A stretch of 64,000 nucleotides of DNA from Verrucomicrobiota bacterium. GTDB lineage: Bacteria; Verrucomicrobiota; Verrucomicrobiia; Palsa-1439. This document shows positions 36,035-57,878 of the stretch, in pieces (position 1 is the stretch's first letter; each line of letters begins with the position of its first letter). Where the stretch lies: the NCBI GenBank assembly GCA_016871575.1, contig VHCW01000003.1, forward strand, positions 36,835-100,834, read 5' to 3'. Position numbers and translations under genes: made by a program. The notes under the pieces are model-generated. The model did no database searches, was not told where the DNA came from, and saw only the letters and a list, made by a program, of their open reading frames with translations.

Positions 36035-37066
36035 CTACTTCTGTTTTCCCTCCAGTTGTTTGCGGACGGCGCTGATGGCCTTGGCTTCGTCGAGATTGCC
36101 GGCGTCCATCGCGGACTTCTGCGCGGCATCAAGGTCGCGGATGTATTGCTGCGCCGCCGACGTGGCCGCGTTTTCGTAACGACTCTTTGCGGTGTTAGCA
36201 AGCGCGCTCGTGAATTGCGGGTTAACCGGCTTGCCGTCCTTGATGTCGCGGGTGGCGTCGCGAATGACGACGGCCTCATCGAGATTGTTGGCGCGCATCG
36301 CGGCCTGCAATGCGGCGTCGAGATCGGCAAGATACTGCTGAGTGGCGGCTGCCAAATATTGGTTGTATCGTGCTTCCGCGGCAGCAGCTTGCCGCGTAGC
36401 AAGTGATGATCCCGACGGGAGAGGTACAGTTGCGGGTGGCGCAACGGTGGGTGCCGGCACAACTGGAGTAGAAACAGCCGCTGAGGGAATCACTCTGCCT
36501 CGCGTCACGAAAATGTTCTTGTATTCGACTTCCCCCTTGGACCAGCTATCGCCGCCGCAGAATCGGAGTTTGTCAGGCGCATTCTTTACTCCTCGGCCCT
36601 TGTTAACCAGTTTTCCGTCCACATAAAACTCGACAGCATCCGGCCTGATGGAAAGAAGAATGTGATAAACGGTTTGCTGATTGTAGTGGAACAGAGGAGC
36701 ACCTTTCGTAGCGGGATAAATTCCAAAGGTCTTCTCGTAGCCTTCGTTCGCAAACGAAAAACGCCCATACTTCACACGCGGGCGCATTCCCTTCAGCACG
36801 TTGATGTCAAACTCCAAGGTGAAGGGCGGTTGGAAATCTTTTTGATACTCGATTTCACTAGCACCACTACCGATCAACGATCCGCCCTTAAACTTCCAAT
36901 CACCGGAGATCACTTTCCATTTCGATTCCTTGTCCTTGGCGAGTAATGCATCCCCATCACTGGCCGGTTTGCCGCCGGGATTGCTGCCAAACCGATCTGC
37001 AGCATTCACACACTCAAGCGTGACCACCAAGACGACGCAGGCAATGGCAAGCAACCAGTGTTTCAT
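36035..37066 (-). CDS. Secreted DUF1080 (3-keto-disaccharide-hydrolase-like) domain protein with a Pro/Ala/Thr-rich linker and a C-terminal tandem ~45-aa repeat
   Basis: Signal peptide. WKVISGDWKFKGGSLIG...FTLEFDINV matches the DUF1080 pattern. C-terminal repeats: QQYLADLDAALQAAMRANNLDEAVVIRD and QQYIRDLDAAQKSAMDAGNLDEAKAISA. Confidence 0.65.
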   Translation of the reverse strand: MKHWLLAIACVVLVVTLECVNAADRFGSNPGGKPASDGDALLAKDKESKWKVISGDWKFKGGSLIGSGASEIEYQKDFQPPFTLEFDINVLKGMRPRVKYGRFSFANEGYEKTFGIYPATKGAPLFHYNQQTVYHILLSIRPDAVEFYVDGKLVNKGRGVKNAPDKLRFCGGDSWSKGEVEYKNIFVTRGRVIPSAAVSTPVVPAPTVAPPATVPLPSGSSLATRQAAAAEARYNQYLAAATQQYLADLDAALQAAMRANNLDEAVVIRDATRDIKDGKPVNPQFTSALANTAKSRYENAATSAAQQYIRDLDAAQKSAMDAGNLDEAKAISAVRKQLEGKQK

Positions 37067-37162
37067 AGCAATCCCTCTGTTTTTCCGCGCAGACTACTCA
37101 ATGCCACCGCCAAATACAGGCCCACGCGGCGTCGCGCCGTGTTCCGGTTTTGTTCCGTTGCG

Positions 37163-38071
37163 TCACTTCAAATACTGGCCGAGGTTCTCTTTCGTCACAA
37201 GCTGGAACGGGATGAAGACCTGTTTCTCGTAAGGCTGTTTCTTGACGATCTTGACGGCGACATCGACAGCGCCGCTGCCTTGGCCGCGCGCATCTTGAAA
37301 CACCGTGGCGTCAAGCCGCCCGGCTTTGACGGCTTGCAGCGCATCGGCAATCGCATCTACTCCGGCGACGATGACTTTGTCTTTCATCTTCGCCTGCTCC
37401 AACGCAAGTAGCGCACCCATCGCCATTTCGTCGTTCTGCGCGAACACAGCCTTGATCTTTGGGCCGAGCGATTGAATCCAGTTTTCCATCAAGCTCATCG
37501 CCTTGGCCCGGTCCCATTCGCCGGTCTGGTCGGCGAGCAACTTCAAGCCGGGATTCTTCGCGAGGATTTCGCGGGCGCCCTGGTCGCGCTTAATCTGCGC
37601 GGCTTGTCCCATGAACCCGTGCATCATCACGACGTTGCCTTGGCTGTTGAGCCGCTTGGCGAGGTAGTCCATCGCGATGCGGCCGGATTCCTCGTCGCGC
37701 GAGCCGACAAACGCCGTCGGCGCGGTCCGCGTCTCGGAGTTCACGTTCACAATCGGGATGCCGGCGGCCAGCGCCTTGTCAACGGCGGGCGCACTCGCCT
37801 CGACTTCGCACGGGTTAAGGATGATGGCGTCCACCCGCTGCGCGATGAAGCTCTCGACCTGCTGAACCTGCCGCTCGGCGCTGCGTTGGGCGTCATTGAT
37901 GATGAGCTTCACGCCAAGTTCCTTCGCCTTCGCTTCCATCGCTTGATGAATCATCACGATGAATTCGTTCGACAAGTTCAACAGTGTAACCCCGATGGTG
38001 ATGCGTTTCTCTCCCGATTGCTCACAACCGCACAACGCCAGCACGAAAACCAATGCGATGATTCGTTTCAC
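37163..38071 (-). CDS. Sugar ABC transporter substrate-binding lipoprotein (RbsB/periplasmic binding protein family)
   Basis: Lipobox LALCGC. PBP type I fold pattern. Confidence 0.8.
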   Translation of the reverse strand: MKRIIALVFVLALCGCEQSGEKRITIGVTLLNLSNEFIVMIHQAMEAKAKELGVKLIINDAQRSAERQVQQVESFIAQRVDAIILNPCEVEASAPAVDKALAAGIPIVNVNSETRTAPTAFVGSRDEESGRIAMDYLAKRLNSQGNVVMMHGFMGQAAQIKRDQGAREILAKNPGLKLLADQTGEWDRAKAMSLMENWIQSLGPKIKAVFAQNDEMAMGALLALEQAKMKDKVIVAGVDAIADALQAVKAGRLDATVFQDARGQGSGAVDVAVKIVKKQPYEKQVFIPFQLVTKENLGQYLK

Positions 38072-38988
38072 GATTTCTCCTTGCGACGGTCGAGCCAGAC
38101 AGCGCCGACGATAATGATGCCTTTCACGATGGCTTGATAGTAGGGCGACACGTTCAGTAAATCGAGGCCGTTATTGATGACACCCATCAACAGTGCGCCG
38201 AGAATCGTCCCGCCAACGCCACCGACGCCGCCCGACAAGCTCGTGCCGCCGATGACAACCGCTGCGATCGCGTCGAGCTCGTAGCCCGCGCCGGCGTTGG
38301 GCTGGCCGGTCGTGATGCGCGAGGCGAGCACGACGCCGGCAAGTCCCGCCAGCGAGCCGCAGACGGTGTAGGCAAACAATTTCACCCGTTCCACGTTGAT
38401 GCCCGAAGCGCGCGCGGCGTTCTCGTTGCCGCCGACCGCGTAGATGTGACGGCCCAGTTTCAGGTTCGCCAGGAAAACCCACGAGACAATCGCAACGGCA
38501 ACGAGGATGAGAATCGGGACCGGACCGTTGCCGATCCATTTGAACTCCTCGCTCAAGTTAGACACCGGCCGCCCGCCACTGATGACGAGCGCCAGCCCGC
38601 GCGCAACTGTCATCATGCCGAGCGTCACGATAAACGGCGCAACGCGTCCTTTCGTGACGACCAGACCGTTGACTGCACCGCAAGCCGTCCCTGCCAGCAC
38701 GCCTAGCAACACGGGCACGAACACCGGGTACTCGCCCGGATGCGCGAAGCTGGCCGCGACGACGCCCGTCAGCGCCACGAGCGAGCCAAGCGAGAGGTCC
38801 ACGCCGCCGGTCAACAGCACGTAGGTCACGCCAACGGCCAGGATACCGTTGATGGAAATCTGACGGACGACATTGAGCAGGTTCGGCCACGTCAGGAAAG
38901 CCGGGTGAACGACGGCCATTGTTGCGCCGATAACAACCAGCGCGATGACAAGGCCAAATCGAGAGAGCCAAACTTTCAGCGAGTTCAT
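38068..38988 (-). CDS. Sugar ABC transporter permease (RbsC/AraH-like)
   Basis: Start MNSLKVWLSRFG at aa 15 of the track ORF (ATG checked). Multi-TM. Confidence 0.75.
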   Translation of the reverse strand: MNSLKVWLSRFGLVIALVVIGATMAVVHPAFLTWPNLLNVVRQISINGILAVGVTYVLLTGGVDLSLGSLVALTGVVAASFAHPGEYPVFVPVLLGVLAGTACGAVNGLVVTKGRVAPFIVTLGMMTVARGLALVISGGRPVSNLSEEFKWIGNGPVPILILVAVAIVSWVFLANLKLGRHIYAVGGNENAARASGINVERVKLFAYTVCGSLAGLAGVVLASRITTGQPNAGAGYELDAIAAVVIGGTSLSGGVGGVGGTILGALLMGVINNGLDLLNVSPYYQAIVKGIIIVGAVWLDRRKEKS

Positions 38989-39136
38989 GCGATGAACGGG
39001 ATAATAGCCGTTTTGCCAAACGCAGGTCAATCAGGTCGAACGGGAACTGTTGTAGCTGCGCTTGTGTCAAGCGCAGCGGTCCGGACTGCTCTGAAACAGC
39101 ATCGGCGCTTGGCACAAGCGCCACTACAGCGCGTCG

Positions 39137-40585
<1,449 letters not shown>

Positions 40586-40678
40586 GCGAACCAGTTACCA
40601 CAATTTTCGTCAATCAAGGAGTTGATTTTTGACGGGGCACCGGGTAGCCTGTGCGGTCGTTACGGCGAGTATCTAATT

Positions 40679-41284
40679 ATGAAACGAATCTGTGTAGCAT
40701 TGATGATGTTGGCGAGTGTGGTCCCCTTGCTGGGGGCGCAGAAAGCGAACTGGACGTCGTTGTTTAACGGCAAGGACCTCGACGGCTGGAAACAACAGGG
40801 CGCCGGCATCTTCAAGGTCGAGGACGGCTGCCTCCTCGGCACGCAGACCGACGGCAAGGGCGGCGACTTGTTCACAACGCGCGAGTTCGACAACTTCGAG
40901 TGCCGGTTCACCTACAAAATGAAATGGCCCGGCAACAGCGGCGTCTGGTTCCGCGACAAATATCAGTTCGACATCCTCAAGTATAAAAAGCCCGTCGCGT
41001 TTAGCGGCTCGATTTATTGTCCCGGCAAGTTGTTCATCACGACGAACCTCGACGAGGGCCTTGAGAACCGCGACGGCTGGAACGAAGCCCGCATCTTTGC
41101 CAACGGCGACCATCTCGCCGTCTGGCTGAACGGCAAGAAAGTCGGCGATTGCCGCGACAGTACGCTCGCCAAGGGACGGATCGGCATCCAGGTCCACGGT
41201 GGCGAAGGCGCCAAGAACATGCAGATTCTCATCAAACGCATTGAAGTCCGCCCGCTCGCTGCGGGCGAGACGCCAAAAGAATAA
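40679..41284 (+). CDS. Secreted DUF1080 (3-keto-disaccharide-hydrolase-like) protein
   Basis: Real start MKRICVALMMLASV sits inside the long track ORF 39425..41284, whose upstream part is antisense to the ABC ATPase. 201 aa. LFNGKDLDGWKQ...GNSGVWFR...HLAVWLNGKKV matches the DUF1080 pattern. Confidence 0.7.
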   Translation: MKRICVALMMLASVVPLLGAQKANWTSLFNGKDLDGWKQQGAGIFKVEDGCLLGTQTDGKGGDLFTTREFDNFECRFTYKMKWPGNSGVWFRDKYQFDILKYKKPVAFSGSIYCPGKLFITTNLDEGLENRDGWNEARIFANGDHLAVWLNGKKVGDCRDSTLAKGRIGIQVHGGEGAKNMQILIKRIEVRPLAAGETPKE

Positions 41285-41308
41285 TCAACCAGCAAAGGAG
41301 CCAATAAC

Positions 41309-42526
41309 ATGCCATCCACCAAAACCATTCAACTCGCATTCGAGCAAGGCAAAGGAATTCTTCGTCTCGCACCCAACTGGGTGCCGCGATCCTTCTGCGT
41401 CCCCGGCCGCCGAATCAAACTTCACCCGAATGACTACTACGCGCTCGGCGGACAGCGCGGCGGCATTGACGAACGCTGGTTCTCCTCCACCACGCCTGCC
41501 GACAACGGCCCGCTCACCGGCAAGAACGAAGGCCTCAGCCAGGTCGTGTTCGAGGACGGCGGCAAAGTCGAACAGGTTCTGTTGCGCGAGGCTGTCAGCG
41601 AACTAAAAGGCAAACTCATTGGCGACCGTTTGTGGAAAGAATACAAATCATGGCCGATGTACTCGAAGTTCTTCGACAACAAAGGCGCCCTCCCGCACCA
41701 CGTCCACCACCGCGACGCACACGCAGCGCTGACGGGACAGAAAGGCAAACCCGAAGCCTATTATTTCTCGCCCCAAGCCAACAACTACGGCGGCGATTTT
41801 CCGTACACGTTCTTCGGGTTCGCCCCCGGCACCACCAAGGACCAGGTTCGTCAATGCCTGATCAACTTCACCAAGGGCGATAACCAGATCACGAGCATTT
41901 CCCAAGCCTACCGACTCGACCCCGGCACCGGCTGGGATGTGCCGCCCGGCGTCTTGCACGCTCCCGGCAGCATGTGCACCTACGAGCCGCAGAAAGCCTC
42001 CGATGTGTTCGCGATGTACCAGTCGTTGACCGGCGACGCGATTGTGCCGGCCGAGTTGCTCTGGAAGAACACGCCGAAGGAGCGCATGAACGACGTTGAC
42101 TGGCTGATGGAAGTGATTGACTGGGACCTGAACGTTGACCCGAACTTCCGTGCGAACCACTTCATGGCGCCCAAGCCCGTGAAACCGTTGAAGCAAATGC
42201 AAGCCGACGGCTACATTGATAACTGGATCTGCTACAAAGCGACCGCCTACAGCGCCAAGGAACTCACCGTGTTGCCCGGCAAGACCGTGACGATCAAGGA
42301 TGGTGGCGCCTACGGCCTGATCATGATGCAAGGCCACGGTACGATGGGCGTGTGGGACATCGAAACCCCGTCGCTGATTCGCTACGGCCAACTGACCCAC
42401 GACGAATTCTTCGTGAGCGAATCCGCCGCCAAGGCCGGCGTGAAGATCACGAATCCGTCCAAGAGCGACCCGATCGTCATGCTCAAACACTTCGGCCCCG
42501 AGAACCCAGACTTGGTTATCGAGTAA
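41309..42526 (+). CDS. Hypothetical protein, possibly a cupin-type sugar isomerase related to class I phosphomannose isomerase
   Basis: 405 aa with an AAAGGAG RBS. LPHHVHHRD and GVLHAPG loosely resemble the ManA metal-binding segments (LSIQVHP..., ETPHAYL). Weak call. Confidence 0.45.
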   Translation: MPSTKTIQLAFEQGKGILRLAPNWVPRSFCVPGRRIKLHPNDYYALGGQRGGIDERWFSSTTPADNGPLTGKNEGLSQVVFEDGGKVEQVLLREAVSELKGKLIGDRLWKEYKSWPMYSKFFDNKGALPHHVHHRDAHAALTGQKGKPEAYYFSPQANNYGGDFPYTFFGFAPGTTKDQVRQCLINFTKGDNQITSISQAYRLDPGTGWDVPPGVLHAPGSMCTYEPQKASDVFAMYQSLTGDAIVPAELLWKNTPKERMNDVDWLMEVIDWDLNVDPNFRANHFMAPKPVKPLKQMQADGYIDNWICYKATAYSAKELTVLPGKTVTIKDGGAYGLIMMQGHGTMGVWDIETPSLIRYGQLTHDEFFVSESAAKAGVKITNPSKSDPIVMLKHFGPENPDLVIE

Positions 42527-42635: not shown

Positions 42636-42908
42636 GTGATCGAGAAACTGCGACAAGCAATCCGTGAACAACGCTACCGTGTTAGCACACATGCCAACGA
42701 AGAGATGTCAGAAGACGCACTGGAGTCCGCGGACATTGAGCGGGTCGTCCTTTCGGGTAACATTGCCCGCAAGTTCACCCGTGACCCACGTGGCACTCGC
42801 TATGAAGTCCTTGGCGAGGCCAGCGACGGACGGCAGGCCTACGTGGTCTGCCGCTTCCTGCCTTCCGGTGTGTTGTTGATCATCACGGCGTATGCCGCAG
42901 AGGAATAA
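42636..42908 (+). CDS. DUF4258-like small protein (toxin-like partner of a YgiT zinc-finger protein)
   Basis: 90 aa with a GTG start per the track. Lower-GC segment. Directly followed by the zinc-finger gene. Confidence 0.5.
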   Translation: MIEKLRQAIREQRYRVSTHANEEMSEDALESADIERVVLSGNIARKFTRDPRGTRYEVLGEASDGRQAYVVCRFLPSGVLLIITAYAAEE

Positions 42909-42911
42909 GAG

Positions 42912-43175
42912 GTGACGAACATGACCAAGAAAGAGCAATGCGAGTTCTGCGACGGACCGGTGGAACACCGGGCCATCCGCGCCGAGTTTCACTACAAAGG
43001 CGAAACGATCTTTGTGGACAACGTACCTGCTTGGGTTTGCACCCAGTGTGCAGAACAATACTTCGATGCGCCAGTGTACAAACGGCTCGAAGAAATCGCC
43101 CGCCATCGCCGCCAAATCAAGAAGACCGTCAGTTTTCCGCTGGCGGAATTCGAAATGTTGAACGCTAAAGCGTGA
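42912..43175 (+). CDS. YgiT-type zinc-finger protein (MqsA-like N-terminal Zn ribbon; antitoxin-like)
   Basis: CEFCDG...CTQCAEQYF four-Cys pattern. 87 aa. GTG start 3 bp after the previous stop. Confidence 0.5.
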
Positions 43176-43191: not shown

Positions 43192-44232
<1,041 letters not shown>

Positions 44233-44337: not shown

Positions 44338-45486
44338 ATGAAACAACTCAACGTCGGTCTCATCGGTTGCGGCTTCATGGGCCGCACACACTCCAACGCC
44401 CACCGCAAGGTCGGCAACTTCTTCAACCTCGAATACCAGCCGGTATTGAAGGCGATCTGCGACTTCAACGCCGAGAAAGCCGGTGCCTTCGCGAAGCAAT
44501 GGGGCTTCGAGTCGGTCGAGACTTGCTGGAAAGCGTTGCTCGCGCGCAAGGACATTGACCTCATTGACATTTGCCTGCCGAACAATCTGCACGCGGAAGT
44601 CGCCATCGCCGCCGCCAAGGCCGGCAAGATGATTATCTGCGAAAAACCGTTGGCCCGCGACGGCAAGGAAGCCGCGCCGATGGTCAAGGCCGTCGAAAAA
44701 GCCGGCGTGCCCAATCTCGTTTCCTTCAACTACCGCCGCATTCCCGCTGTCACGCTCGCCAAGCAACTAATTACTGAAGGCCGGCTCGGAAAGATTTTCC
44801 ATTACCGCGCGAAATTCCTCCAAGACTGGACGATCTCGAAAGACCTGCCGCAGGGCGGCGACGCGCTGTGGCGGCTCGATGTGAAGGCCGCCGGTTCCGG
44901 CGTGACGGGCGATCTGCTCGCGCACTGCATTGACACCGCGCTCTGGCTCAACGGCAGCATCAACACTGTCAACGCGATGACCGAGACGTTCATCAAGGAG
45001 CGTAAGAGCAACATCACCGGCAAGGTGGAGAAGGTCGGCATTGACGACGCGTGCGCGTTCCTGTGCCGGTTTGCCAACGGCTCGCTTGCGACCTTCGAGT
45101 CCACGCGTTACGCCCGCGGCCACAAGGCGCTCTACACCTTCGAGATCAACGGCGAGCACGCCTCGATCTTCTGGGACCTGCACGACCTGCACCGCCTGCA
45201 ATGGTTCGACCACAAGGACGAAGGCAAGTTGCGCGGCTGGCGTTCCATCCACGTCACCGACGGCGATCATCCCTACATGAAGAACTGGTGGGTGCCCGGC
45301 TTGAACGTCGGTTTCGAGCATTCCTTCGTGCATCAACTGGCCGACTTCCTGACCGGCGTTGCCACCGGCAAGCCGGCCAGCCCGACGTTCCGCGAGGCGC
45401 TCGAAACGCAGTACGTTTGCGATGCCGTGTTGAAGTCCGCGAAGACCTGCCGCTGGGAAAAGGTCAAACAAGCGAAGGCGCAATGA
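44338..45486 (+). CDS. Gfo/Idh/MocA family oxidoreductase (cytoplasmic, no signal peptide)
   Basis: [11 protein letters not shown] Rossmann motif and EKP motif. RBS AAAGAAAGG. Confidence 0.85.
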
Positions 45487-46748
45487 ACCGGCGCGCCTTC
45501 CTCAAGACGGCGGCAAAGGCCGGCGCGCTGTTGGCCATGCCGATGGTTCTGCCGGCGTCCGTGTTGGGCCGCGGCGGCGCGGTGGCGCCGAGCGAACGAA
45601 TCGTGCTCGGCGCCATCGGCATTGGCCGGCGCGGTTCCTACGTGCTCGGTTGTTTCCTCGAAGAACAGGACGTGCAGTTCGTGGCCATCTGCGACGTGAA
45701 GAAGGAACGCCGCGACGAGGTCAAGGCGCGCGCCGACCAGAAATACGGCAACAACGAATGCAAGACCTACCGCGACCTGCGCGAGATTCTTGCGCGCGAC
45801 GACATTGACGCGTTGCTCATCGCCACGGGACCGAACTGGCATTGTCTCGCCTCCGTGCTGGCCGCCAAGGCCGGCAAGGATGTCTATTCTGAGAAACCTT
45901 GCACGAAAAACATTGCCGAGAGTTTGATTCTCGCCGACACCTTCCGCCGCACCGGTCGCATCTTTCAGGCCGGCACGCAGCGGCGCAGTCTGCCGAACTT
46001 CGAGTTCGCCGTGGACCTTGCCCGGCTCGGCAAACTCGGCAAGCTCCAGACGCTACACGCGCAGCCGTGGGGAATGGCCACGGGCATGAGCGGTTGGTTG
46101 CCGGAAGAACCGCCGTTGCCCAAGGAGGAAGGCGACTGGGACATGTGGCTCGGACCCGCCGCGTGGCGGCCGTTCAATGCCGAGCTGTTCAAGAGCGCGT
46201 TCCACTTCGAGAAAGGCGGCGGCCTTGTCGGCGGCGGCTGTCTCGAATGGGGGTCGCACTGTGTGGACCTCTGCCAGTGGGCCAACGACGCCGACCACAC
46301 GGCGGCCATCGAGTATTGGCCCGAAGGCAAGGAACTGCACGCCCGCTACCCCAACGGCGTCAAGCTCGTCATGCGCGACACCGGCTGGCTGCCCAACATC
46401 GGTTCCTGCCCCATCCGCTTCGAGGGCGAGAAAGGCTGGGTGGAAACCGGCGACAACGGCGACCTCTACGCCAGTTCGCCTGACCTGCTCGCCGGCCGGC
46501 GCGCCAAGGTTGCCGGGTACCCGGCGAACTTCCACGTCCGCAACTTCCTCGACTGCGTCAAGACCCGCGCCCAGCCCCGCGCCCACGCGGATGCCGCTTG
46601 TTACGCCCACATCACCTGTCACGCCGCCAACATCGCGCTGTTCCTCAACCGCAAGGTCGTTTACGACACGGTGAAACACGAGTTTCCCGGCGATGCCGTG
46701 GCCAACCGTCTGCGCTCCGAAGCGTTGCGCGAACCCTGGAGGATTTGA
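45483..46748 (+). CDS. Tat-exported Gfo/Idh/MocA family oxidoreductase (candidate periplasmic glycoside 3-dehydrogenase)
   Basis: Start [18 protein letters not shown] at aa 145 of the track ORF, with an ATGA overlap. YSEKP motif. Confidence 0.85.
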
Positions 46749-46751
46749 AAG

Positions 46752-48641: not shown

Positions 48642-49894
48642 AGCATCTCAGCCGGCGGGCGTTTTTGAAAAACTCGCTGCTGGCGGGCGGCGCGCTGGCG
48701 TTTCCGTGGGTCGCCCCGGCGCACGCCGTGGCGCCGAGCGAACGCATCACGCTCGGTGTGATCGGGATTGGCCGGCGTTGCCAGCATGTGCTCGGTTGCC
48801 TGCTCGAAGAACCCGACATGCAGTGCGTGACGATCTGCGACGTGCAAGCCAGCCGGCGCGAAACCGCCAAAAAAATGGTGGACGACAAGTACGGCAACCA
48901 CGACTGCACCACCATCCGGGATTTCCGCGAACTGCTCGCGCGACCCGACATTGACGCCGTCCTCATCGCCACGGGCGACCACTGGCACGCGCTCGCTTCC
49001 ATCATGGCCGCCAAGGCCGGCAAGGACGTTTACAGCGAGAAACCGTGCGCGATGACCATCGCCGATTGCCAGGCCCTCGACGACACGATGCGCCGCTACG
49101 CGCGCGTCTTCCAAGCCGGCACCCAGCGGCGCAGCATCGGCAATTTCCAGTCCGCCGTCCATCTCGCCCGCTCCGGCAAACTCGGGCGGCTCCACACGTT
49201 GCACGCGTCCATCTACAAACTCAGCGTCCGTTACGATTGGCTGCCCGAAGAACCGTTGCCGCCGAAGGAGGAAGTGGACTGGGACATGTGGCTCGGCCCG
49301 TCGCCGTGGCGTCCGTACAACTCCCAGTACGTCGCCGGCCGATGGCGCGAGCATTTCGATTTTGATTCCGGCGGCAAACTGCTCGACTGGGGCGCGCACA
49401 CTGCCGACTTGTGCCAGTGGGCCAACAACGCCGACGATGCCACGCCGGTCGAGTTCATCCCGGACGGCAACACCATCACCGGCCGTTACGCCAACGGCGT
49501 CAAACTTGTCCTGCGTCACGAAGGCTGGCTGGGGACGGGCACCTGCCCGGTCCGCTTCGAGGGCGACGAAGGCTGGGTCGAGACCGGCGACAACGGCGAC
49601 ATCGAAGTCCATCCGGCTTCCCTGCGAAGCGAATTGCGCCAGTTGTCCCAACAACGGCGCGGCACCGATGCCGGCAGTCACGGACGAAATTTCCTCGACT
49701 GCATCCGGTCGCGCGCCCAGACCAATGCGAATTCGAGCGTCATGCGCCACTCACACATCGCCTGTCACGTCGCCGCCATTGCGTGGCTCTTGAAACGCAA
49801 GGTCACATTTGATCCAGTCGCTGAGGCGTTTGTTGGCGACGACGAAGCCAACCGGATGCGTTCCCGCGCCTACCGTGAACCATGGAGGATCTGA
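48638..49894 (+). CDS. Tat-exported Gfo/Idh/MocA family oxidoreductase
   Basis: Start MKHLSRRAFLKNSLLAGGALA with an ATGA overlap to the HEAT gene. YSEKP motif. Confidence 0.85.
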   Translation: MKHLSRRAFLKNSLLAGGALAFPWVAPAHAVAPSERITLGVIGIGRRCQHVLGCLLEEPDMQCVTICDVQASRRETAKKMVDDKYGNHDCTTIRDFRELLARPDIDAVLIATGDHWHALASIMAAKAGKDVYSEKPCAMTIADCQALDDTMRRYARVFQAGTQRRSIGNFQSAVHLARSGKLGRLHTLHASIYKLSVRYDWLPEEPLPPKEEVDWDMWLGPSPWRPYNSQYVAGRWREHFDFDSGGKLLDWGAHTADLCQWANNADDATPVEFIPDGNTITGRYANGVKLVLRHEGWLGTGTCPVRFEGDEGWVETGDNGDIEVHPASLRSELRQLSQQRRGTDAGSHGRNFLDCIRSRAQTNANSSVMRHSHIACHVAAIAWLLKRKVTFDPVAEAFVGDDEANRMRSRAYREPWRI

Positions 49895-51597: not shown

Positions 51598-51614
51598 AAT
51601 GTGACGTTGATGCA

Positions 51615-51720: not shown

Positions 51721-51887
51721 ACAGCCTCTCGCTTTTCTGCCGCGCCACGCAAAGCGTATTGACGGAACGCCTCGCGTAATCGCGGTGACGTGTGTGGCCG
51801 GTGTTGCAGGATGGAGATGGCATCATCAGCAATTGTCCGGCCACGCTTCCCCACCACCCTGCCGACGGGACGGCGGCAGCGACATCA

Positions 51888-53957
51888 TTATTTTGCAGCT
51901 TTTTTCGCGCGGTCGAGCAATTCCTTGGCGCGGTCGGCGATGCGGCGGTTCTTCGGTTCCGCCTTTTCGAGCGCCGCGGCAACCGCCGCCGGCTGGGAAT
52001 CAACAATCTTCTCCCCGATGCCGACGATGGTGACGCACGCCGTCTCTTTCAGGCGCGGCGTTTCGAGGAACGTCAACGCCATCGTCAACGCTTCCGCGCA
52101 CGGAGCCTGGCCGAGCGCCGACAACAGCAGTTGCCGCTCGTCGTCGCGCGTGATCAATGCCGACGCTTCCTTCAGCGACGCGACCTTCTTCTGCGGGGCC
52201 GCGTCCTGCACACCGATCAAGCGCAGCCAGCCGCGCAACGCGAGAATCTTGAACTTCGCGTCGGGCGACGTCTTTGCGAGATTCGCCAAGTCGGGCAGCG
52301 CCTCCGCTGTCGGCCAATCGCACATCGCGCGCAACGCCGTCTCGCGGACCTCGGTGTCGCTGTCGGACGCCGCCGCGCGAATCGCGCCCAGCGCCTTCGC
52401 GCCGCCGGCGGAACGCAGGACGCGGAGCAACGAGATCTTGGCTGCGCCGGAAGATTTCGGCACCGCGGCGCAGAGCGCATCGGTTATGGCTGCGGGAACC
52501 GCGATGGCCGATAACGCAATCGAATCGCGTTCCGCGACGGTCTTGCTTTGCACGCCGCTGCCGGCGTCGTAGTCAATGCGCAGCTTCTTTGGCTTGTTAC
52601 GGGCCGGGTCGCCGAAATTCTTGTTCGACGCCTCGATGCTGAACTTGCCGGCCTTCAGGAGCTTGGCGACTTTCTCGGTTACGTCGGCGGACTTGCCGTC
52701 CGGTAGATCGCCGTACACGGCCTTGACGACGGTGATGTTGGCGGCGGTCGGTTTCGATTCGCGTGTGCAAACGCCGGTGAGCGCGGTTTCGAGGGACTCG
52801 GCTTCGGCGGATGATTTCGCCTTCAACAGCAAATCAACCAACAACGGGAAGTCTTTCGCAGTGGCCAATTCGCCGGCGGCGCGGATGGCGGCGGTGCGAA
52901 CGGCTTCATCGGAATCGCCAGTCGCCTTCAACAGCATGGGCACGGCGCCGGCGACGCGGCGTTGGCCGATAAGGCTGACGCCGAGCGCGCGGATTTTCGC
53001 GTCGGAGTTGTCGAGCAACGCCAACACGGCCTTTTCGGCTTCCTTGCCGGGCATGCTGACAAGCGCGGCCTGCGCGACGGGCGCGAGTTCACGTCCGCCG
53101 AGCGCAACTTCGACCATCATCGGCACGGCCGAAGTTTCGCGGAGCTGCGTCAGCACTTGGATCGAGGCGGCGGTGCGCAGCGCGAGCAACGCGGGCACAA
53201 CGGCGCGGTCGCCACGGTCGCCGAGCGCGCGGATCAGCAGATCTTGCCGGTCGGCTGGCAGCTTGGTGATTTCGGCGGCGAGCGCGGCAGTCAGCTTCTT
53301 CTCGTCCCACTCGCGCGTCAGGCGGAGCGCGACGCCGAACATGCCGGGGTCGTCGCTGTGAAGTTGTTGAATCAACGTCGGGATGCCCTTGGCGCCGCGA
53401 TTGCGAATGGCCCCGGCCATCGCGCCGATGCGGATGTGCGCCGGAATCGAGGGCGCGATGAGTTTTTCGTAAAGCGCCGGTTTCGTTTCGGCTGCGATGA
53501 GACAGGCCGCGGCAGTGGCGGGCAGGTTCTTCTCAATCGCGGCGAGGGCGTCGGGCGTGCCGATGCGCGCGAGCGCCGACGCCGCAAACGTGTCGGGCAA
53601 CAACGCGATGAGCGCCGGCACGGCTTTCTTGTCCTGTCGGACGCCAATGGAATGGATGACGCCGGCGCGGAGCCGGTCGGTCGTCTTGCCGAGGGCGTCG
53701 CGCAGCACTTCGTCAACGCTCGGGTCCTTGAGCGGTTCGAGCGCGTAGCGGGCCATGTGCGACATCTCTTCGTTGGTGAGCAACGCGGCAAGCGTCGGGA
53801 TGGACGCTTTTGTGGCGACGATGGCGAGTTGCCGGCAGGCGTCGGATTTCTCGTAGCGCGAGGCGGTGCTGGATTTCAGCGTGGCCAGCAGTTCAGCTTC
53901 GCCAGCAAAAGCCGACGTCACGGCGGCAAGGAGGAGTGAGAGGATGATGTTTTTCAT
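51888..53957 (-). CDS. Secreted HEAT-repeat protein with an inserted SUEL/galactose-binding-lectin-like segment
   Basis: Signal peptide MKNIILSLLLAAVTSAFA. HEAT repeats. The insert ITVVKAVYGDLPDGKSADVTEKV...ASNKNFGDPARNKPKKLRIDY resembles a Cys-free Gal_Lectin/SUEL pattern. Paralog of 46752..48641. Confidence 0.7.
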   Translation of the reverse strand: MKNIILSLLLAAVTSAFAGEAELLATLKSSTASRYEKSDACRQLAIVATKASIPTLAALLTNEEMSHMARYALEPLKDPSVDEVLRDALGKTTDRLRAGVIHSIGVRQDKKAVPALIALLPDTFAASALARIGTPDALAAIEKNLPATAAACLIAAETKPALYEKLIAPSIPAHIRIGAMAGAIRNRGAKGIPTLIQQLHSDDPGMFGVALRLTREWDEKKLTAALAAEITKLPADRQDLLIRALGDRGDRAVVPALLALRTAASIQVLTQLRETSAVPMMVEVALGGRELAPVAQAALVSMPGKEAEKAVLALLDNSDAKIRALGVSLIGQRRVAGAVPMLLKATGDSDEAVRTAAIRAAGELATAKDFPLLVDLLLKAKSSAEAESLETALTGVCTRESKPTAANITVVKAVYGDLPDGKSADVTEKVAKLLKAGKFSIEASNKNFGDPARNKPKKLRIDYDAGSGVQSKTVAERDSIALSAIAVPAAITDALCAAVPKSSGAAKISLLRVLRSAGGAKALGAIRAAASDSDTEVRETALRAMCDWPTAEALPDLANLAKTSPDAKFKILALRGWLRLIGVQDAAPQKKVASLKEASALITRDDERQLLLSALGQAPCAEALTMALTFLETPRLKETACVTIVGIGEKIVDSQPAAVAAALEKAEPKNRRIADRAKELLDRAKKAAK

Positions 53958-53969
53958 GGTGGGATTTCC

Positions 53970-55265: not shown

Positions 55266-55275
55266 GTGTTCTCCT

Positions 55276-56586
55276 TTAGATTGTCCAAGGCGCACGCATC
55301 GCGCGCGACCGGTAACGGTTCGCTTCGGGGTCGTTGATAAATTCTTCTTTCTCGGGATCGAGCTTCATGTCGCGTTTCAACCACATGCAGATGTTGGCCG
55401 CGTGCACCGTCATCATCGAATGATGCATCACGCTCGGGTTTGCGACGGTCTGCTGGCGCGAACGCATGCAGTCGAAGAAATTCCGCCAGTGGTCGAGCGA
55501 ACGCCCCGTGCGGGCGACATACTCGGCGATGACCTTCTTGTACTCGCTCAACAGCGACGGCGACGAGGCGTCGGGTTTCTGGTAGCCGTCCGCGGCGGCG
55601 ACCCAGCCTTCTTCGCCGTCGAAACGCTCGCCACACGAGCCGTGCCAGTGTTTCTTGCCCTGCGAGAAAATCATCTTCGTGCCGTTGGCGAATTGCGTGA
55701 CCATGCCGTCGCCGGAATCATTGTCAATGTACTTGTAGAGAACCGGCGACGTGTCCGACATGTCGAGTCCCGCTTGCGCCTGCGCGAACGTGTGTGCGCC
55801 CCATTCGCCGATGCAGCTCGTGTGAAAATCGTAGTGGCCGCGCCAGCCGCCTTGGATGTAGCGGGAGTTGTACGGACGCCACGGACACGGGCCGAGCCAG
55901 GCATCCCAGTCTACTTCGTCCTTCGACGGCAACGGTTCCTCCGGCAGCCAATCTTGTTTCAATCCGGCAGCGGTCCCGCCGGAGATGTGCGCGTAGGCGG
56001 TGTGGACTTTGCCGAGCCGGCCGGTGCGGGCCATCTCGATGCAGAAAACGTGGTTCGCTTCGCTGAGCCGCTGCGTGCCGGTCTGGTAGATGCGGCCGTA
56101 TTGCTTCGCCGTCTCGACGACCGCGCGGCCTTCGGCGATGGTCAGGGACGACGGTTTCTCGGTGTACACGTCTTTGCCGGCGCGCATCGCGTAAATCGAG
56201 GCGAGCGCGTGCCAGCGGTCGCCCGTCGCGATCAACACGCCGTCAATGTCGGCGCGCTCGGTGACGAACTCGCGGAGGTCGCGGTACATCTTGCAGTCTT
56301 TGCTGTTGTACCGGCTGTCAATCATCTCCTTGACGGCCTCACGACGGTCCTTGCGGATGTCGCAGATGGCGACGAACTGCACGTCCTGTTCTCCCATCAT
56401 CTTTTTCAAGTCACCGGTGCCGCGTCCGCGAATGCCGATGCAACCCATGATGATCTTCTCGCTTGGCGCGACACCGCCGCCGCGTCCGAGCACATGCGCC
56501 GGCACGACCAACGGCATCGCCATCGCCGCGCTGGCGATTTTCAAAAACTGGCGTCGCGAAAAGTTGGGCGTTTTCAAATTCTCCAT
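55276..56586 (-). CDS. Tat-exported Gfo/Idh/MocA family oxidoreductase (tandem array copy 2)
   Basis: MENLKTPNFSRRQFLKIASAAMA. YTEKP motif. Confidence 0.85.
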   Translation of the reverse strand: MENLKTPNFSRRQFLKIASAAMAMPLVVPAHVLGRGGGVAPSEKIIMGCIGIRGRGTGDLKKMMGEQDVQFVAICDIRKDRREAVKEMIDSRYNSKDCKMYRDLREFVTERADIDGVLIATGDRWHALASIYAMRAGKDVYTEKPSSLTIAEGRAVVETAKQYGRIYQTGTQRLSEANHVFCIEMARTGRLGKVHTAYAHISGGTAAGLKQDWLPEEPLPSKDEVDWDAWLGPCPWRPYNSRYIQGGWRGHYDFHTSCIGEWGAHTFAQAQAGLDMSDTSPVLYKYIDNDSGDGMVTQFANGTKMIFSQGKKHWHGSCGERFDGEEGWVAAADGYQKPDASSPSLLSEYKKVIAEYVARTGRSLDHWRNFFDCMRSRQQTVANPSVMHHSMMTVHAANICMWLKRDMKLDPEKEEFINDPEANRYRSRAMRAPWTI

Positions 56587-57878
56587 GGCTCGCGCATCGG
56601 GCGGGAACGCAGACGGTTGGCTTCGGCGTCGCCGATGAATTCGTATTTGAGCAGGTCAAACTTCACGTTTCGTTTCAATTGTTCGCAGATGTCGGCAGCC
56701 AGACAGATCGCCATCGAGCGGAGCATGACTTCGGGATTCGCGATTGCCTGCCGACGCGACCGGACACAGTCGAGGAAATCGCGCATGTGATTCAGGGAAC
56801 GTTGTGTCCGTCCGACGTATTCGGCGATCACCTTCTTGTATTCGAGCAACAGCGACGGCGAAGAGACATCGGTGGTCGCATACCCATCGGCAGCCGCTGT
56901 CCATCCTTTGGGGCCATCGAACCGCTCGCCACAAGCGCCGTGCCAGAACTCGCACTTTTTCCAAACATCACCGGCGACCCGGTACAGTACCAACTTCACG
57001 CCGTTGGACAGCCGCGTCATGATCGTCGCATCCGGCCCGGCGAACTCGAACTCAATCGTCGAAACATTCGACAGATCGAGCCCGGCCAACGCCTGCGCAA
57101 CCGTGTGCGCGCCCCACATCGCGACATCGGTGGCGAGATCGTAGAAACCATACCAGCTTCCACCGCCTTTCAAATACGCGCTGTTGTACGGACGCCACGG
57201 ACACGGCCCGAGCCAAGTGTCCCAGTCCACTTCCTCCTTCGGCGGCAGAGGTTCCTCCGGCAGCCAATCGTAACGTTGCCCGCCGCGCCACCGGCAGTCG
57301 GCGTAGGCCGTGTGAATTGGTCCGAGCTGGCCAGTGCGCGCCATTTCGATGGCAAACACGTGATTCGGCTCGCTGAGCCGCTGCGCGCCGGTCTGGTAAA
57401 CCCGCGCGTAGCGGGCTGCTGTCTCCACGACCGCCTGTCCTTGCGCGATCGTGAGACACGCAGGTTTCTCGGTGTAAACGTCTTTCCCCGCTTTCATCGC
57501 GAGGATGGACGCCAGCGCGTGCCAGCGGTCGCCCGTCGCAATCAACAGCGCATCAATGTCAGTCCGCGTCGCCAGAAACTCCCGAATCTCGCTGTACGTG
57601 GCGCAATCCTTGTTGCCGTATTTGTTGTCCACGACATTCTTGGCGGCTTCGCGCCGGCGTTTCTGGAGGTCGCAGACGGCGACGAACTGAACGTCTTGCT
57701 CGACGAGCATCCAATTCAAATCGTGCGTCCCGCGGCCACCGATGCCGATGCCGCCGGCGATGATGCGCTCGCTCGGCGCGACAGCACCGCCCCGGCCGAG
57801 CACGCGGGCAGGAACCACTAACGGCGCGGCAGCAAGGACGGCTGCGCTCTTCAAAAAAGTGCGGCGATTGATTTGCAT
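56574..57878 (-). CDS. Tat-exported Gfo/Idh/MocA family oxidoreductase (tandem array copy 3, more divergent)
   Basis: MQINRRTFLKSAAVLAAA. YTEKP motif. Confidence 0.85.
   Translation of the reverse strand: MQINRRTFLKSAAVLAAAPLVVPARVLGRGGAVAPSERIIAGGIGIGGRGTHDLNWMLVEQDVQFVAVCDLQKRRREAAKNVVDNKYGNKDCATYSEIREFLATRTDIDALLIATGDRWHALASILAMKAGKDVYTEKPACLTIAQGQAVVETAARYARVYQTGAQRLSEPNHVFAIEMARTGQLGPIHTAYADCRWRGGQRYDWLPEEPLPPKEEVDWDTWLGPCPWRPYNSAYLKGGGSWYGFYDLATDVAMWGAHTVAQALAGLDLSNVSTIEFEFAGPDATIMTRLSNGVKLVLYRVAGDVWKKCEFWHGACGERFDGPKGWTAAADGYATTDVSSPSLLLEYKKVIAEYVGRTQRSLNHMRDFLDCVRSRRQAIANPEVMLRSMAICLAADICEQLKRNVKFDLLKYEFIGDAEANRLRSRPMREPWRI

Follow-up and report, generated by a model that had tools for sequence, protein, structure and literature searches.

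The window analysed here is a stretch of 64,000 nucleotides from a Verrucomicrobia genome, in which a cluster of about 22 kb joins three widely conserved gene modules. The genes are listed below with their positions in the window.

36035..37066, minus strand: G1, secreted 343-aa protein with a Sec-type N-terminus in the translation, not verifiable as DUF1080
37163..38071, minus strand: G2, predicted CUT2 substrate-binding lipoprotein; PF13407 (Peripla_BP_4), 228 bits
38068..38988, minus strand: G3, ABC permease; PF02653, 160 bits
39137..40585, minus strand: G4, ABC ATPase with a duplicated cassette; PF00005 twice
40679..41284, plus strand: G5, DUF1080 protein with a Sec signal; PF06439
41309..42526, plus strand: G6, cytosolic 405-aa protein without a Pfam family, ultra-conserved
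43192..44232, plus strand: G7, cytosolic xylose-isomerase-like TIM barrel; PF01261, 45.7 bits
44338..45486, plus strand: G8, cytosolic GFO oxidoreductase, levoglucosan-dehydrogenase-like; PDB 4h3v, 6a3f
45483..46748, plus strand: G9, Tat-exported GFO (Tat-GFO) of PF19051 type, upstream partner of G10; PF01408 and PF19051
46752..48641, plus strand: G10, HEAT-repeat paralogue 1, without beta insert, signal peptide shortened; PF13646
48638..49894, plus strand: G11, Tat-GFO, upstream partner of G12; PF01408 and PF19051
49882..51597, plus strand: G12, Tat-exported fusion of ThuA and TIM barrel; PF06283 109 bits, PF01261 45 bits, TAT_signal
51888..53957, minus strand: G13, secreted HEAT solenoid, paralogue 2, with an inserted beta domain; PF13646
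53970..55265, minus strand: G14, Tat-GFO, upstream partner of G13; PF01408 and PF19051
55276..56586, minus strand: G15, Tat-GFO, tandem paralogue, 77% identical to G14; PF01408 and PF19051
56574..57878, minus strand: G16, Tat-GFO, tandem paralogue, 62% identical to G14; PF01408 and PF19051
57920..58480, plus strand: ECF-type sigma factor; Sigma70_r2/r4_2, TIGR02937

The Tat-GFO paralogues share 44-77% mutual identity, and genes of the locus overlap or abut by 4-13 nt (13 nt of overlap between G11 and G12); judged from this arrangement, the locus is therefore a genuine operonic cluster and not a product of chance. The ECF-type sigma factor gene is divergent from the G16-G13 operon across a gap of 42 bp, and from its position it is a candidate regulator of the locus. 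Three modules, each conserved across PVC-type phyla, make up the cluster: a Tat-GFO followed by a HEAT gene, a Tat-GFO together with the Tat-exported ThuA-TIM fusion, and a cytosolic triad consisting of the TIM barrel G7, the levoglucosan-dehydrogenase-like G8 and the Pfam-less G6. In locus L005 all modules are present together. A literature search found no paper on these PVC families.

The first-pass annotation had counted six GFO oxidoreductases, five of them with twin-arginine signals, and domain searches bore this out (PF01408 and PF19051 in the five). The motif was found in all five exported proteins, as NRRAFLK in G9, SRRAFLK in G11, SRRQFLK in G14 and G15, and NRRTFLK in G16. Pfam or TIGR Tat models matched three of the five, G9 (TIGR01409, E=0.0044), G14 and G16; for G15 the TAT_signal score of 19.8 bits lay under the Pfam cut-off of 22.7, and no Tat model matched G11, so that in these two the Tat call is made from the motif alone.

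By sequence comparison, the characterised proteins nearest to the Tat-GFOs are glycoside 3-dehydrogenases, AL3/BT2158 and then DgpA. The top NCBIfam match of all five was the BT_2158 glycoside 3-dehydrogenase model with 100-156 bits (G9 100, G11 111, G14 142), far under its equivalog cut-off of 750 bits, while IolG gave 49-80 bits. G14 alone matched AL3 (PDB 8tdf) at E=8e-27. With a family profile AL3 was the top named enzyme (1e-35), followed by the C-glycoside enzymes DgpA1 (1e-19) and DgpA (5e-18), and further down by inositol dehydrogenase (1e-15), GFOR (4e-13) and GH109 (2e-10). Since the BT_2158 model outscored IolG in every paralogue and the profile ranked AL3 and DgpA over these last three, the paralogues stand closer by score to glycoside 3-dehydrogenases than to inositol or glucose-fructose dehydrogenases. 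The 3-keto-glycoside chemistry proposed earlier fits this ranking, but the scores are far below cut-off and the alignment to AL3 is restricted to the N-terminal ~240 residues. All members of the Tat-GFO family keep the lysine of EKP and the counterparts of AL3 Gln161 and His252, and the position of Asp248 is Glu or Asp in most members; in G16 it is Met and the acidic residue is gone. AL3 Arg192 is not kept, and the paralogues diverge most in the loop aligned with the sugar-contacting loop of AL3.

GH109 and the GFOR of Zymomonas mobilis are likewise GFO-fold enzymes exported by Tat, and they bind NAD(P) tightly without exchanging it. The GH109/GH4 type suggests another reading, in which each Tat-GFO would be an NAD-dependent glycosidase complete in itself, performing all four steps at a single active site, and its lyase-like neighbours would be unrelated. 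Structures 6t2b and 2ixa are indeed among the Tat-GFO matches. We consider this quite unlikely, as the GH109 matches (2e-10 and 7e-10) are far weaker than that of AL3, and DUF1080 and ThuA-TIM, which recur as fusions or neighbours, argue for a division of labour. GFOR is also much more distant than AL3; it oxidises C1 of free glucose, whereas GH109 is a one-enzyme glycosidase.

The closest described system is the 3-keto-glycoside pathway of Bacteroides thetaiotaomicron and Alistipes, BT2156-BT2160 and AL1-AL5 (Liu et al. 2021, PMC8121099; Nasseri et al., bioRxiv 10.1101/2024.03.25.586180). Its parts are a GFO that is exported by Tat and binds NAD tightly, a TIM lyase that is secreted, a lyase/hydratase of the DUF1080 family and a further GFO in the cytosol, and 3-ketoglucose recycles the NAD (PMC8121099; bioRxiv 10.1101/2024.03.25.586180). 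Common to both are a Tat-exported PF01408 GFO, secreted proteins of the DUF1080 and xylose-isomerase-like TIM-barrel types, and an additional GFO in the cytosol. Among solved structures AL3 is nearest to the Tat-GFOs here, with catalytic His, Gln and EKP motif kept; only ~240 N-terminal residues align, and the scores amount to about 15-20% of the NCBIfam cut-off. The present locus differs in having five Tat-GFO paralogues in place of one, an obligate HEAT partner, which the Bacteroides/Alistipes cluster lacks in the published descriptions, a TIM barrel fused to ThuA, a distinct cytosolic triad with the cupin-like G6, and a nearby ECF sigma factor instead of a SusR-type regulator. Compared with the solved AL1/BT1 and AL2/BT2, its TIM and DUF1080 proteins show weak sequence similarity or none.

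Two TIM barrels, one of them Tat-exported and fused to ThuA, had been annotated, and G7 and G12 agreed with this description. The TIM half of G12 matched PDB 3p6l at E=2e-48, across PVC bacteria the fusion is conserved at 69-92% identity, and it adjoins Tat-GFO genes in all three other contexts. According to literature cited in PMC8121099, ThuAB of Sinorhizobium/Agrobacterium (trehalose/sucrose-isomer) form 3-keto-disaccharides. As in ThuAB, the ThuA-domain gene adjoins a GFO gene, with translational coupling (G11-G12); unlike there, ThuA is Tat-exported and fused to TIM, and the GFO is of PF19051 type. The DgpA/DgpBC system of C-glycoside deglycosylation, source of the second-best characterised relatives of the profile, is alike in that TIM-barrel lyases act after oxidation, but the sequences are alike in the Rossmann half only. 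The locus carries no specific sign of C-glycoside lyases, and nothing in it singles out the C-glycoside cleavage suggested previously.

Of two proposed DUF1080 proteins one was upheld. G5 matched PF06439 with 126 bits (cut-off 26.8) and carries the Sec signal MKRICVALMMLASVVPLLGA; its PDB matches were 4jqt (4e-22) and, in the N-terminal part only, 8tda (2e-7), and by homology its family would be that of the 3-keto-glycoside lyase/hydratases. For G1 the assignment was not borne out, as a local DUF1080 HMM, Pfam and NCBIfam gave no match. The sole hint in Pfam and NCBIfam was Laminin_G_3 at E=0.18; a ConA-like N-terminal domain followed by two C-terminal helical repeats is possible. The near-identical locus L087 has a G1 homologue at the equivalent place.

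The HEAT_2 paralogues G10 and G13 are 42% identical. Both had been called secreted; this holds for G13, but the signal peptide of G10 is truncated and lacks a positively charged n-region, while those of its orthologues are canonical. An NCBI Verrucomicrobia MAG protein is 100% identical to G13. The AF2 model of G13 (pLDDT 90.6), with the inserted beta domain at residues ~402-486, retrieved CAND1, karyopherin and SF3B1 in Foldseek, and is a confidently predicted solenoid of protein-binding type. The association of HEAT genes with GFO genes, noted before, was confirmed and extended on 79 HEAT genes drawn from at least 589 species (GTDB loci, at least 6 phyla): a same-strand GFO gene lay upstream of all 79, directly so in 76. 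The pairing is thus general and reaches beyond the present locus. G14 shares 63-72% identity with GFOs encoded beside HEAT genes in Planctomycetes, and pairwise GFO and HEAT distances correlated (r=0.58; 0 of 999 permutations as high). Of 80 loci, 16 carry DUF1080 fused to HEAT and 12 have it directly downstream (28 in all); it was absent within 8 kb at 65% of HEAT loci, and in the window none stands next to G10 or G13. Besides GFO and DUF1080 no conserved neighbour was found among the 80 loci.

The sugar ABC importer was verified as G2-G4 (PF13407, PF02653, PF00005), which by family assignment is of the CUT2 monosaccharide type. G2 has the N-terminus MKRIIALVFVLALCGC with a lipobox, and its best NCBIfam models were RbsB, AlsB, YtfQ and MglB; those of G3 were ribose/arabinose permeases, and G4 is XylG/AraG/RbsA-like (509-542 bits), all under cut-off. 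In the triad, homologues of G8 and G6 adjoin each other in 39 of 48 loci, G7 homologues adjoin those of G8 or G6 in 28 of 48 long loci, and DUF1080 is linked to the triad in 14 of 48. G6 had been described as a cupin isomerase-like protein, which was not borne out at usual thresholds in Pfam, NCBIfam and PDB, nor did it match KduI/IolB. Hypothetical proteins from Kiritimatiellia, Sedimentisphaerales, Phycisphaerales and Bacteroidota share 76-98% identity with it, identity across phyla spans 74-98%, and its family holds 328 clusters at E<=1e-30, with distant members likewise Pfam-less. Weak motif alignments to PMI and Foldseek matches that were all cupins (query model pLDDT 52) weakly suggest that it is probably a cupin/PMI-like metalloenzyme. 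No relative of G7 was found among solved structures, even with a family profile; it is a candidate keto-sugar lyase, hydratase or isomerase.

The Lgd pathway proceeds by oxidation, elimination, hydration and reduction. With LgdA and the TIM-barrel LgdB it resembles this part of the locus, where G8 (4h3v, 6e-95; levoglucosan dehydrogenase 6a3f, 3e-82) stands beside a TIM barrel and an ABC importer; G6 has no counterpart in that pathway. The whole locus, or the cytosolic half at least, might catabolise cyclitols (inositols) or anhydrosugars such as levoglucosan and not cleave glycosides: levoglucosan dehydrogenase is the nearest named relative of G8, scyllo-inositol dehydrogenase matched at 5e-48, the set of GFO, TIM, cupin-like protein and PfkB kinase (L005, L006) recalls IolG/IolE/IolB/IolC, and inositols as well as monosaccharides are cargo of CUT2 importers. 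This is unlikely, as G8 stays under both equivalog cut-offs (LevoglcsnDh, NF052479, 337 of 650 bits, about half; IolG 116 of 355), IolD, IolA and IolJ are absent from the locus, G6 lacks a KduI/IolB match, G7 has no detectable solved relative, and the triad is physically linked with DUF1080 and GFO-HEAT.

Gene content, export signals, homology ranking, cross-phylum linkage and fusions were observed directly; from these we infer all of the catalysis, what the substrates are and what HEAT does. On balance we favour, with some reserve, a reading in which the three modules jointly cleave glycosides by a non-Koshland route of oxidation, elimination, hydration and reduction, with HEAT as a non-catalytic partner. 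Genes of the GH78, GH123, GH2 and trehalase-like kinds, found among the neighbours in other genomes, speak for this reading. The five Tat-GFOs would fold round tightly bound NAD(P) in the cytoplasm, be exported by Tat, and oxidise the sugar of different glycosides, most likely at C3. The keto-glycosides would then lose the aglycone by beta-elimination, for which the TIM lyase of the Tat-exported ThuA-TIM protein and the secreted DUF1080 protein are candidates, and DUF1080 would hydrate the enone to a keto-sugar. Reduction of the keto-sugar would re-oxidise the reduced GFO, so that the periplasmic process would be redox-neutral and need no cytochrome. Gene linkage, fusion and fold class suggest that the HEAT solenoids are partners of the GFO encoded upstream, probably as a scaffold holding GFO and DUF1080 or as a glycan presenter, with intermediates and reducing equivalents recycled locally. 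Monosaccharide-sized products would enter through the CUT2 importer, and G8, G7 and the cupin-like G6 may complete their processing. The multi-substrate periplasmic pathway first proposed is supported in part, but the locus also holds a cytosolic triad and a monosaccharide importer.

It is rather unlikely that the Tat-GFOs are instead net oxidative periplasmic dehydrogenases of sugars or glycosides which pass electrons to the respiratory chain, as in LacABC-type glucoside 3-dehydrogenases, with HEAT and/or ThuA acting as adaptors or as cofactor-binding partners in electron transfer. Nasseri et al. (bioRxiv 10.1101/2024.03.25.586180) allow for re-oxidation by specialised proteins such as cytochromes; the HEAT family has an invariant His-Met pair (SHMARYALE), conserved Cys residues and homologues with PBS-lyase-type HEAT repeats (PF03130), and in the Bacteroidota locus L004 a cytochrome-c-like protein of 909 aa is encoded near the G6 cassette. 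Against this, no CxxCH motif was found in the high-GC3 ORFs screened outside 31-62 kb of the window, no Pfam cytochrome domain in any locus ORF, and no cytochrome family conserved beside GFO-HEAT across 80 loci; the modelled HEAT fold resembles protein-binding solenoids and not redox proteins, and many carriers belong to anaerobic lineages (Kiritimatiellia, Sedimentisphaerales, Brocadiia). In the glycoside-cleaving pathway that we favour, the HEAT partner and the ultra-conserved G6 are the uncharacterised components.

The locus at 36035-57878 is real and well organised. Genes were picked by codon-position GC and Pfam matches, which gave 16 pathway-type genes (G1-G16, in coordinate order) in three transcription units. 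Below, GFO denotes a Gfo/Idh/MocA oxidoreductase, Tat-GFO one with a twin-arginine export signal, and TIM a TIM-barrel protein.

Unit 1, minus strand: G4 ABC ATPase, G3 permease, G2 lipoprotein binding protein (together a CUT2 importer), G1 secreted protein
Unit 2, first half, plus strand: G5 DUF1080 protein with Sec signal, G6 (405 aa), a two-gene toxin-antitoxin insertion, G7 TIM barrel
Unit 2, second half, plus strand: G8 cytosolic GFO, G9 Tat-GFO, G10 HEAT-repeat protein, G11 Tat-GFO, G12 Tat-exported ThuA-TIM fusion
Unit 3, minus strand, convergent with G12: G16, G15 and G14 Tat-GFOs, then G13 HEAT-repeat protein

Overlaps or abutments of 4-13 nt between adjacent genes point to operons. 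The signal in a promoter and terminator scan did not exceed the shuffled background and was hence uninformative. The gene list of the first-pass annotation was correct apart from three points, namely G1, the label of G6 and the signal peptide of G10. Long antisense ORFs are frequent in the window because of its G+C content of about 62%. Overlong ORFs of up to 953 aa at 46889-49750 (minus), 46053-48536 (minus) and 39425-41284 (plus) overlap real genes on the opposite strand or in another frame; we regard them as artefacts that arise from the high G+C and from the many alanine codons of HEAT genes. The antisense ORFs of HEAT genes also form a mock "family" (cluster 1) in the neighbour clustering of 80 related loci. 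The insertion between G6 and G7 consists of two small genes:

42636-42908, plus strand: DUF4258 protein (48 bits), first of the toxin-antitoxin-like pair
42912-43175, plus strand: MqsA/YgiT-type zinc-finger antitoxin (25 bits, under the Pfam cut-off of 30)

This intergenic region is variable, since the near-identical locus L087 has a gap of different length (1.6 kb) there.

Cleavage of glycosides via 3-keto intermediates was described for BT2156-2160 (the first four also called BT1-BT4) of Bacteroides thetaiotaomicron and AL1-AL5 of Alistipes by Liu et al. (PMC8121099) and Nasseri et al. (bioRxiv 10.1101/2024.03.25.586180). Many alpha- and beta-glycosides are oxidised at C3 by a Tat-exported GFO whose NAD does not exchange; beta-aglycones are eliminated by a secreted TIM barrel and alpha-aglycones by a DUF1080 protein, which also hydrates the enone, and the 3-ketoglucose product re-oxidises the GFO. 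In vitro the pathway works without its second, cytosolic GFO, and its rate is limited by cofactor recycling because 3-ketoglucose isomerises away (PMC8121099; 10.1101/2024.03.25.586180). The window holds every part type of this scheme and the mechanism proposed here therefore follows it. By analogy, the Tat-GFOs would oxidise glycosides at C3 with tightly bound NAD. The locus is best filed as a variant of this recently described 3-keto (oxidation-elimination) system, with every catalytic assignment drawn from homology and gene linkage.

Five GFOs had been credited with twin-arginine signals, and we could confirm this. Each of the five (G9, G11, G14, G15 and G16) has an [SN]RRxFLK motif, and the Tat models PF10518 or TIGR01409 matched three, G9, G14 and G16; G15 fell slightly under the PF10518 cut-off and G11 was unmatched. 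The highest-scoring NCBIfam model for each Tat-GFO was NF058561 (BT_2158 family glycoside 3-dehydrogenase, the family of AL3 and BT3), at 100-156 bits vs 49-80 bits for IolG. Alignments to this 487-position model were limited to positions 1 to ~260, and all scores (G9 100.5, G11 110.8, G14 142.2, G15 156.5 and G16 128.2 bits) were below its equivalog cut-off of 750 bits. Despite the top rank of the model, the Tat-GFOs would not be placed in the curated BT_2158 family on their sequences.

In a PDB search with G14 as single sequence, 8tdf (E=8e-27) and 8tdh (3e-24) came well ahead of all others. 8tdf presumably represents the Alistipes glycoside 3-dehydrogenase AL3, because the numbers of five AL3 active-site residues, Gln161, Arg192, Trp195, Asp248 and His252 (10.1101/2024.03.25.586180), fit it at a constant offset of 29; Tyr349 is also counted to this active site. 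A profile built from ten members of the Tat-GFO family matched AL3 (8tdf) at E=1e-35, followed by 3ec7 and DgpA1 (both 1e-19), DgpA (5e-18), inositol dehydrogenase (1e-15), GFOR (4e-13) and GH109 (6t2b 2.3e-10, 2ixa 7.4e-10). AL3 and BT_2158 thus rank first by profile and NCBIfam, respectively. The clustering with inositol or glucose-fructose dehydrogenases, which the first-pass annotation had named as speaking against its 3-keto reading, was not observed, and in this respect the evidence fits that reading. A function of the Tat-GFOs as GH109-like glycosidases, acting as single enzymes, is disfavoured; the GH109 matches failed a test of close relationship, being 25 orders of magnitude weaker than the match to AL3, and lyase partners recur beside the Tat-GFOs.

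Aligned to 8tdf, the Tat-GFO family is invariant at the EKP lysine and at the positions of AL3 Gln161 and His252, and the Asp248 position holds Glu or Asp in most members and Met in G16. The counterpart of Trp195 is kept in G14 only, Arg192 is not conserved, and Tyr349 falls beyond the alignable segment. The C-terminal ~160 residues are family-specific (PF19051) and end in a conserved REPWRI tail. Variation among the five Tat-GFOs is greatest in the loop aligned with the sugar-contacting Arg192/Trp195 of AL3, which fits paralogues that may differ in sugar specificity. G14, G15 and G16 fall into a clade of HEAT-adjacent GFOs and are 63-72% identical to planctomycete members; G9 and G11 represent a second clade. 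The motif with Met at the Asp248 position of G16 (56574-57878, minus strand) reads AMWGAH, where the other paralogues have Glu or Asp (alignment A3), and G16 may differ from them in chemistry or substrate.

A constant association with HEAT-repeat proteins had been proposed as well, and our survey bears it out. At E<=1e-5 the HEAT family comprises 713 relatives, with 40-48% identity in Planctomycetes among the matches listed, and on three unrelated contigs a PF19051-type GFO of 434-442 aa stands immediately 5' of the HEAT gene on the same strand. Counting one genome per GTDB species, HEAT carriers amount to at least 589 species from Verrucomicrobiota, Planctomycetota, Lentisphaerota/Victivallales, Kiritimatiellia and Hydrogenedentota, together with some Nitrospiraceae MAGs and one FCB-group MAG. 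From this survey 80 loci were kept, in which 79 HEAT genes had upstream sequence sufficient for judging. A Tat-GFO family ORF was found directly upstream in 76 of the 79, with an RRxF[L]-type motif in 73 of these 76. For the remaining three the Tat-GFO was still upstream, past a 1.1-kb gap or before a frameshifted HEAT gene, so that the order holds in 79/79 surveyed cases and in both window pairs (G9 before G10, G14 before G13). Several HEAT relatives carry a C-terminal DUF1080 fusion; of the 80 loci, 16 have the domain fused to HEAT and 12 have a separate DUF1080 gene immediately downstream of the HEAT gene. Unbiased clustering of all neighbouring ORFs revealed no further family in more than 12/80. 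Pairwise distances of GFO and HEAT proteins were correlated (r=0.58; 0/999 permutations as high), the GFO being more conserved than its partner (mean identity 64% vs 46%).

These neighbourhoods also bear on a respiratory-linked oxidative role of the Tat-GFOs, an explanation that is weakened by several results. No cytochrome c is conserved around the GFO-HEAT pair in the 80 loci, Pfam gave no cytochrome domain in the locus proteins, and no CxxCH cytochrome c motif occurred in the window ORFs screened, all of which lie outside 31-62 kb. Moreover, many carriers are anaerobes.

The AlphaFold2 model of G13 (51888-53957, minus strand; pLDDT 90.6) predicts a long alpha-solenoid that is interrupted by a beta domain at residues ~402-486. 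G13 is 100% identical to an NCBI protein of a Verrucomicrobia metagenome-assembled genome, which points to such a genome as the source of the window. Foldseek matched this model to protein-binding solenoids only (CAND1, karyopherin-beta, SF3B1), with no enzyme or cofactor-binding analogue among the matches. Invariant residues of the family include C41, the SHMARYALE motif and LCDWPT. The beta insert, with the motif VVKAVYGDLPDG..ADVT...NFGDP..KKLRV.Y (alignment A1), is present in G13 and most homologues, in which it is a weak match to PF11875 (DnaJ-like C11 C-terminal / DUF3395); G10 and the homologue P0009 are without it (alignment A1). Both window genes had been annotated as secreted HEAT paralogues. 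The HEAT assignment stands for both, but the signal peptide of G10 is truncated compared to its orthologues and is without their charged n-region. G9 and G10 share one frame, split by the G9 stop and one codon (46746-46754). Stop-codon read-through was considered and rejected, as same-frame pairs make up ~12/79 relatives, less than the one-third expected by chance. From linkage, fusion and fold class we read the HEAT protein as a non-catalytic partner, which would either scaffold the GFO with DUF1080 or present the glycan. A literature search found no paper on the GFO-HEAT pair.

G5 passed the DUF1080 or 3-keto-disaccharide hydrolase model (PF06439, the AL2/BT2157 family) with 126.2 bits against a cut-off of 26.8. 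Its alignment to 8tda spans only G5 residues 24-92, and G5 measures 201 aa, as compared to ~280 aa for BT2, whose conserved channel residues are Glu103, Asn134, Glu164, Gln166, Tyr190, Lys245, Gln273 and His275. G1 (36035-37066) had been taken for a second DUF1080 protein. This assignment was dropped, since G1 had no match in Pfam at E<=10, in NCBIfam or with our own HMM of 13 DUF1080 domains taken from related loci.

The description of G12 as a Tat-exported TIM barrel fused to ThuA proved accurate; it carries a Tat signal, the ThuA domain (PF06283, residues 57-292) scored 109 bits against a cut-off of 33.4, and the TIM half passed PF01261 (45.1 vs 31.1). The solved relatives of the TIM half, 3p6l (2e-48), 4kw2 and 3lmz, are Bacteroidales structural-genomics proteins, whereas entries of AL1/BT1 (3-keto-beta-glucoside 1,2-lyase) were absent from its PDB matches. 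Members of the fusion family from Planctomycetota, Verrucomicrobiota and Lentisphaerota share 69-92% identity. The fusion adjoins Tat-GFO genes in 3/3 other contexts, and here G12 and G11 overlap by 13 nt.

The cytosolic GFO G8 is clearly homologous to levoglucosan dehydrogenase (6a3f, E=2.6e-82) and to 4h3v. It matched the levoglucosan dehydrogenase model NF052479 over the full length with 337.5 bits, below the cut-off of 650, and would accordingly be classed by sequence as a homologue rather than an equivalog. With NF058563 (BT_2159 disaccharide 3-dehydrogenase, the cytosolic AL4/BT4) it reached 31.3 bits, again failing a cut-off of 650. The IolG equivalog (TIGR04380, at least 355 bits) was failed by both G8 (115.7 bits) and the Tat-GFOs (49-80 bits). 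By these scores the locus enzymes fall outside the curated BT_2158, BT_2159 and LgdA families. A cyclitol or levoglucosan pathway for the cytosolic half, for which the homology of G8 might speak, appears improbable to us; G8 failed both the IolG and the Lgd equivalog tests, and enzymes of the IolD, IolB and IolC types are absent from the locus, among whose proteins no ThDP enzyme, KduI/IolB domain or PfkB kinase was found. G7 passed PF01261, and neither its single sequence nor a 17-sequence profile retrieved a solved relative.

G6 (41309-42526, plus strand) had no Pfam match at E<=10 and no NCBIfam or PDB relative at the usual level. It is 76-98% identical to "hypothetical proteins" of Kiritimatiellia, Sedimentisphaerales, Phycisphaerales and Bacteroidota, and with Verrucomicrobiota and Planctomycetota as a whole included the range is 74-98%; such conservation is unusual for an unannotated protein. 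At E<=1e-30 the family covers 328 clusters of a 50%-identity library, its distant full-length members being Pfam-less too, and one distant member matches PF01050 at E=0.025. Of 48 metagenomic G6 loci that are 9 kb or longer, 39 have a G8-like GFO, the near-constant neighbour of G6, 28 a G7-like TIM barrel, 14 DUF1080 and ~6 the GFO-HEAT pair. A PfkB kinase follows G6 in L005 and L006, and L005 (Sedimentisphaerales) shows a full chain of Tat-GFO, HEAT-DUF1080 fusion, cytosolic GFO, TIM, FG-GAP, G6 and PfkB.

In the PDB a G6 profile weakly matched phosphomannose isomerases (PMI; 1qwr E=0.15, 5zuy 1.9), the sole other match being KIN17 (2ckk, E=0.21) at chance level. The weak alignments fall on the PMI metal and catalytic motifs of G6, which include HHxHH (~130-134), KPEAYYF (~147-153) and PPGVLHAPG...EPQKASD (~212-232). 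An AlphaFold2 model from a 27-sequence alignment, which was too uniform, had a pLDDT of 52; the top 50 Foldseek matches of this model were almost all cupins, which at such a pLDDT may hint at a cupin fold. The "cupin" label given to G6 earlier thus agrees with the weak PMI and cupin matches, but no model matched significantly. Taking motif alignments and cupin matches together, we read G6 as probably cupin/PMI-like, in which case it would be a metalloenzyme that acts on an unphosphorylated sugar. The ABC importer is of the monosaccharide type (CUT2), in keeping with a product of monosaccharide size being taken up and not an intact oligosaccharide.

What is new in the 3-keto variant lies in its architecture: an enlarged dehydrogenase set, a Tat-GFO-HEAT(-DUF1080) module invariant across phyla, a second module of Tat-GFO and ThuA-TIM, and a cytosolic triad (G6-G8) with the ultra-conserved, unannotated G6. 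The HEAT partner and G6 are both absent from the characterised Bacteroidota system. A bolder proposal, which we hold to be rather doubtful, is that Tat-GFO, HEAT and DUF1080 form an obligate periplasmic "oxidative glycosidase" complex and that G6 is a missing enzyme of keto-sugar salvage in the cytosol. In such a complex the HEAT subunit would wrap the dehydrogenase and channel keto-intermediates back. If true, this would solve the cofactor-recycling bottleneck reported in vitro for the Bacteroides enzymes, and the complex would occur widely in Planctomycetota, Verrucomicrobiota, Lentisphaerota, Kiritimatiellia and Hydrogenedentota; together with G6, two new protein families would gain defined roles, in a major and barely explored route of environmental glycan turnover.

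Oxidation-elimination cleavage of glycosides was defined only recently, in gut Bacteroidota, and hundreds of PVC-type genomes (Planctomycetota, Verrucomicrobiota and allied phyla) from sediments, lakes and sludge seem to encode a scheme of this kind. CAZy-based surveys leave such genes uncounted, and if these work as proposed, the glycan-degrading capacity of the phyla is underestimated. The HEAT-GFO pair offers a testable handle on periplasmic recycling of a Tat-exported, non-exchanging NAD cofactor.

The genes flanking the locus are as follows:

31400-35257, plus strand: 1285-aa protein with PQQ_2/BamB-like beta-propeller repeats, SAM-methyltransferase and C-terminal malectin (carbohydrate-binding) domains
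35311-35802, plus strand: PIN-domain protein (VapC-like), between the malectin protein and G1
57920-58480, plus strand: ECF-type sigma factor, divergent from the G16-G13 operon, which starts 42 bp away
58584-59411, plus strand: PaaX-like protein (PaaX_M Cas2-like domain), after the sigma factor
62366-63334, plus strand: seventh GFO, cytosolic, 322 aa (PF01408 and PF22725), 4.5 kb past the locus
63458-64000, plus strand: start of a GAPDH gene, downstream of the seventh GFO

The PQQ_2/malectin protein sits just upstream of the locus. In L001 and L003, too, PQQ_2-repeat proteins occur beside the GFO-HEAT pair, but they are not a conserved neighbour across the 80 loci. On the other side, the ECF sigma factor or the PaaX-like protein could be a regulator of the G16-G13 operon.
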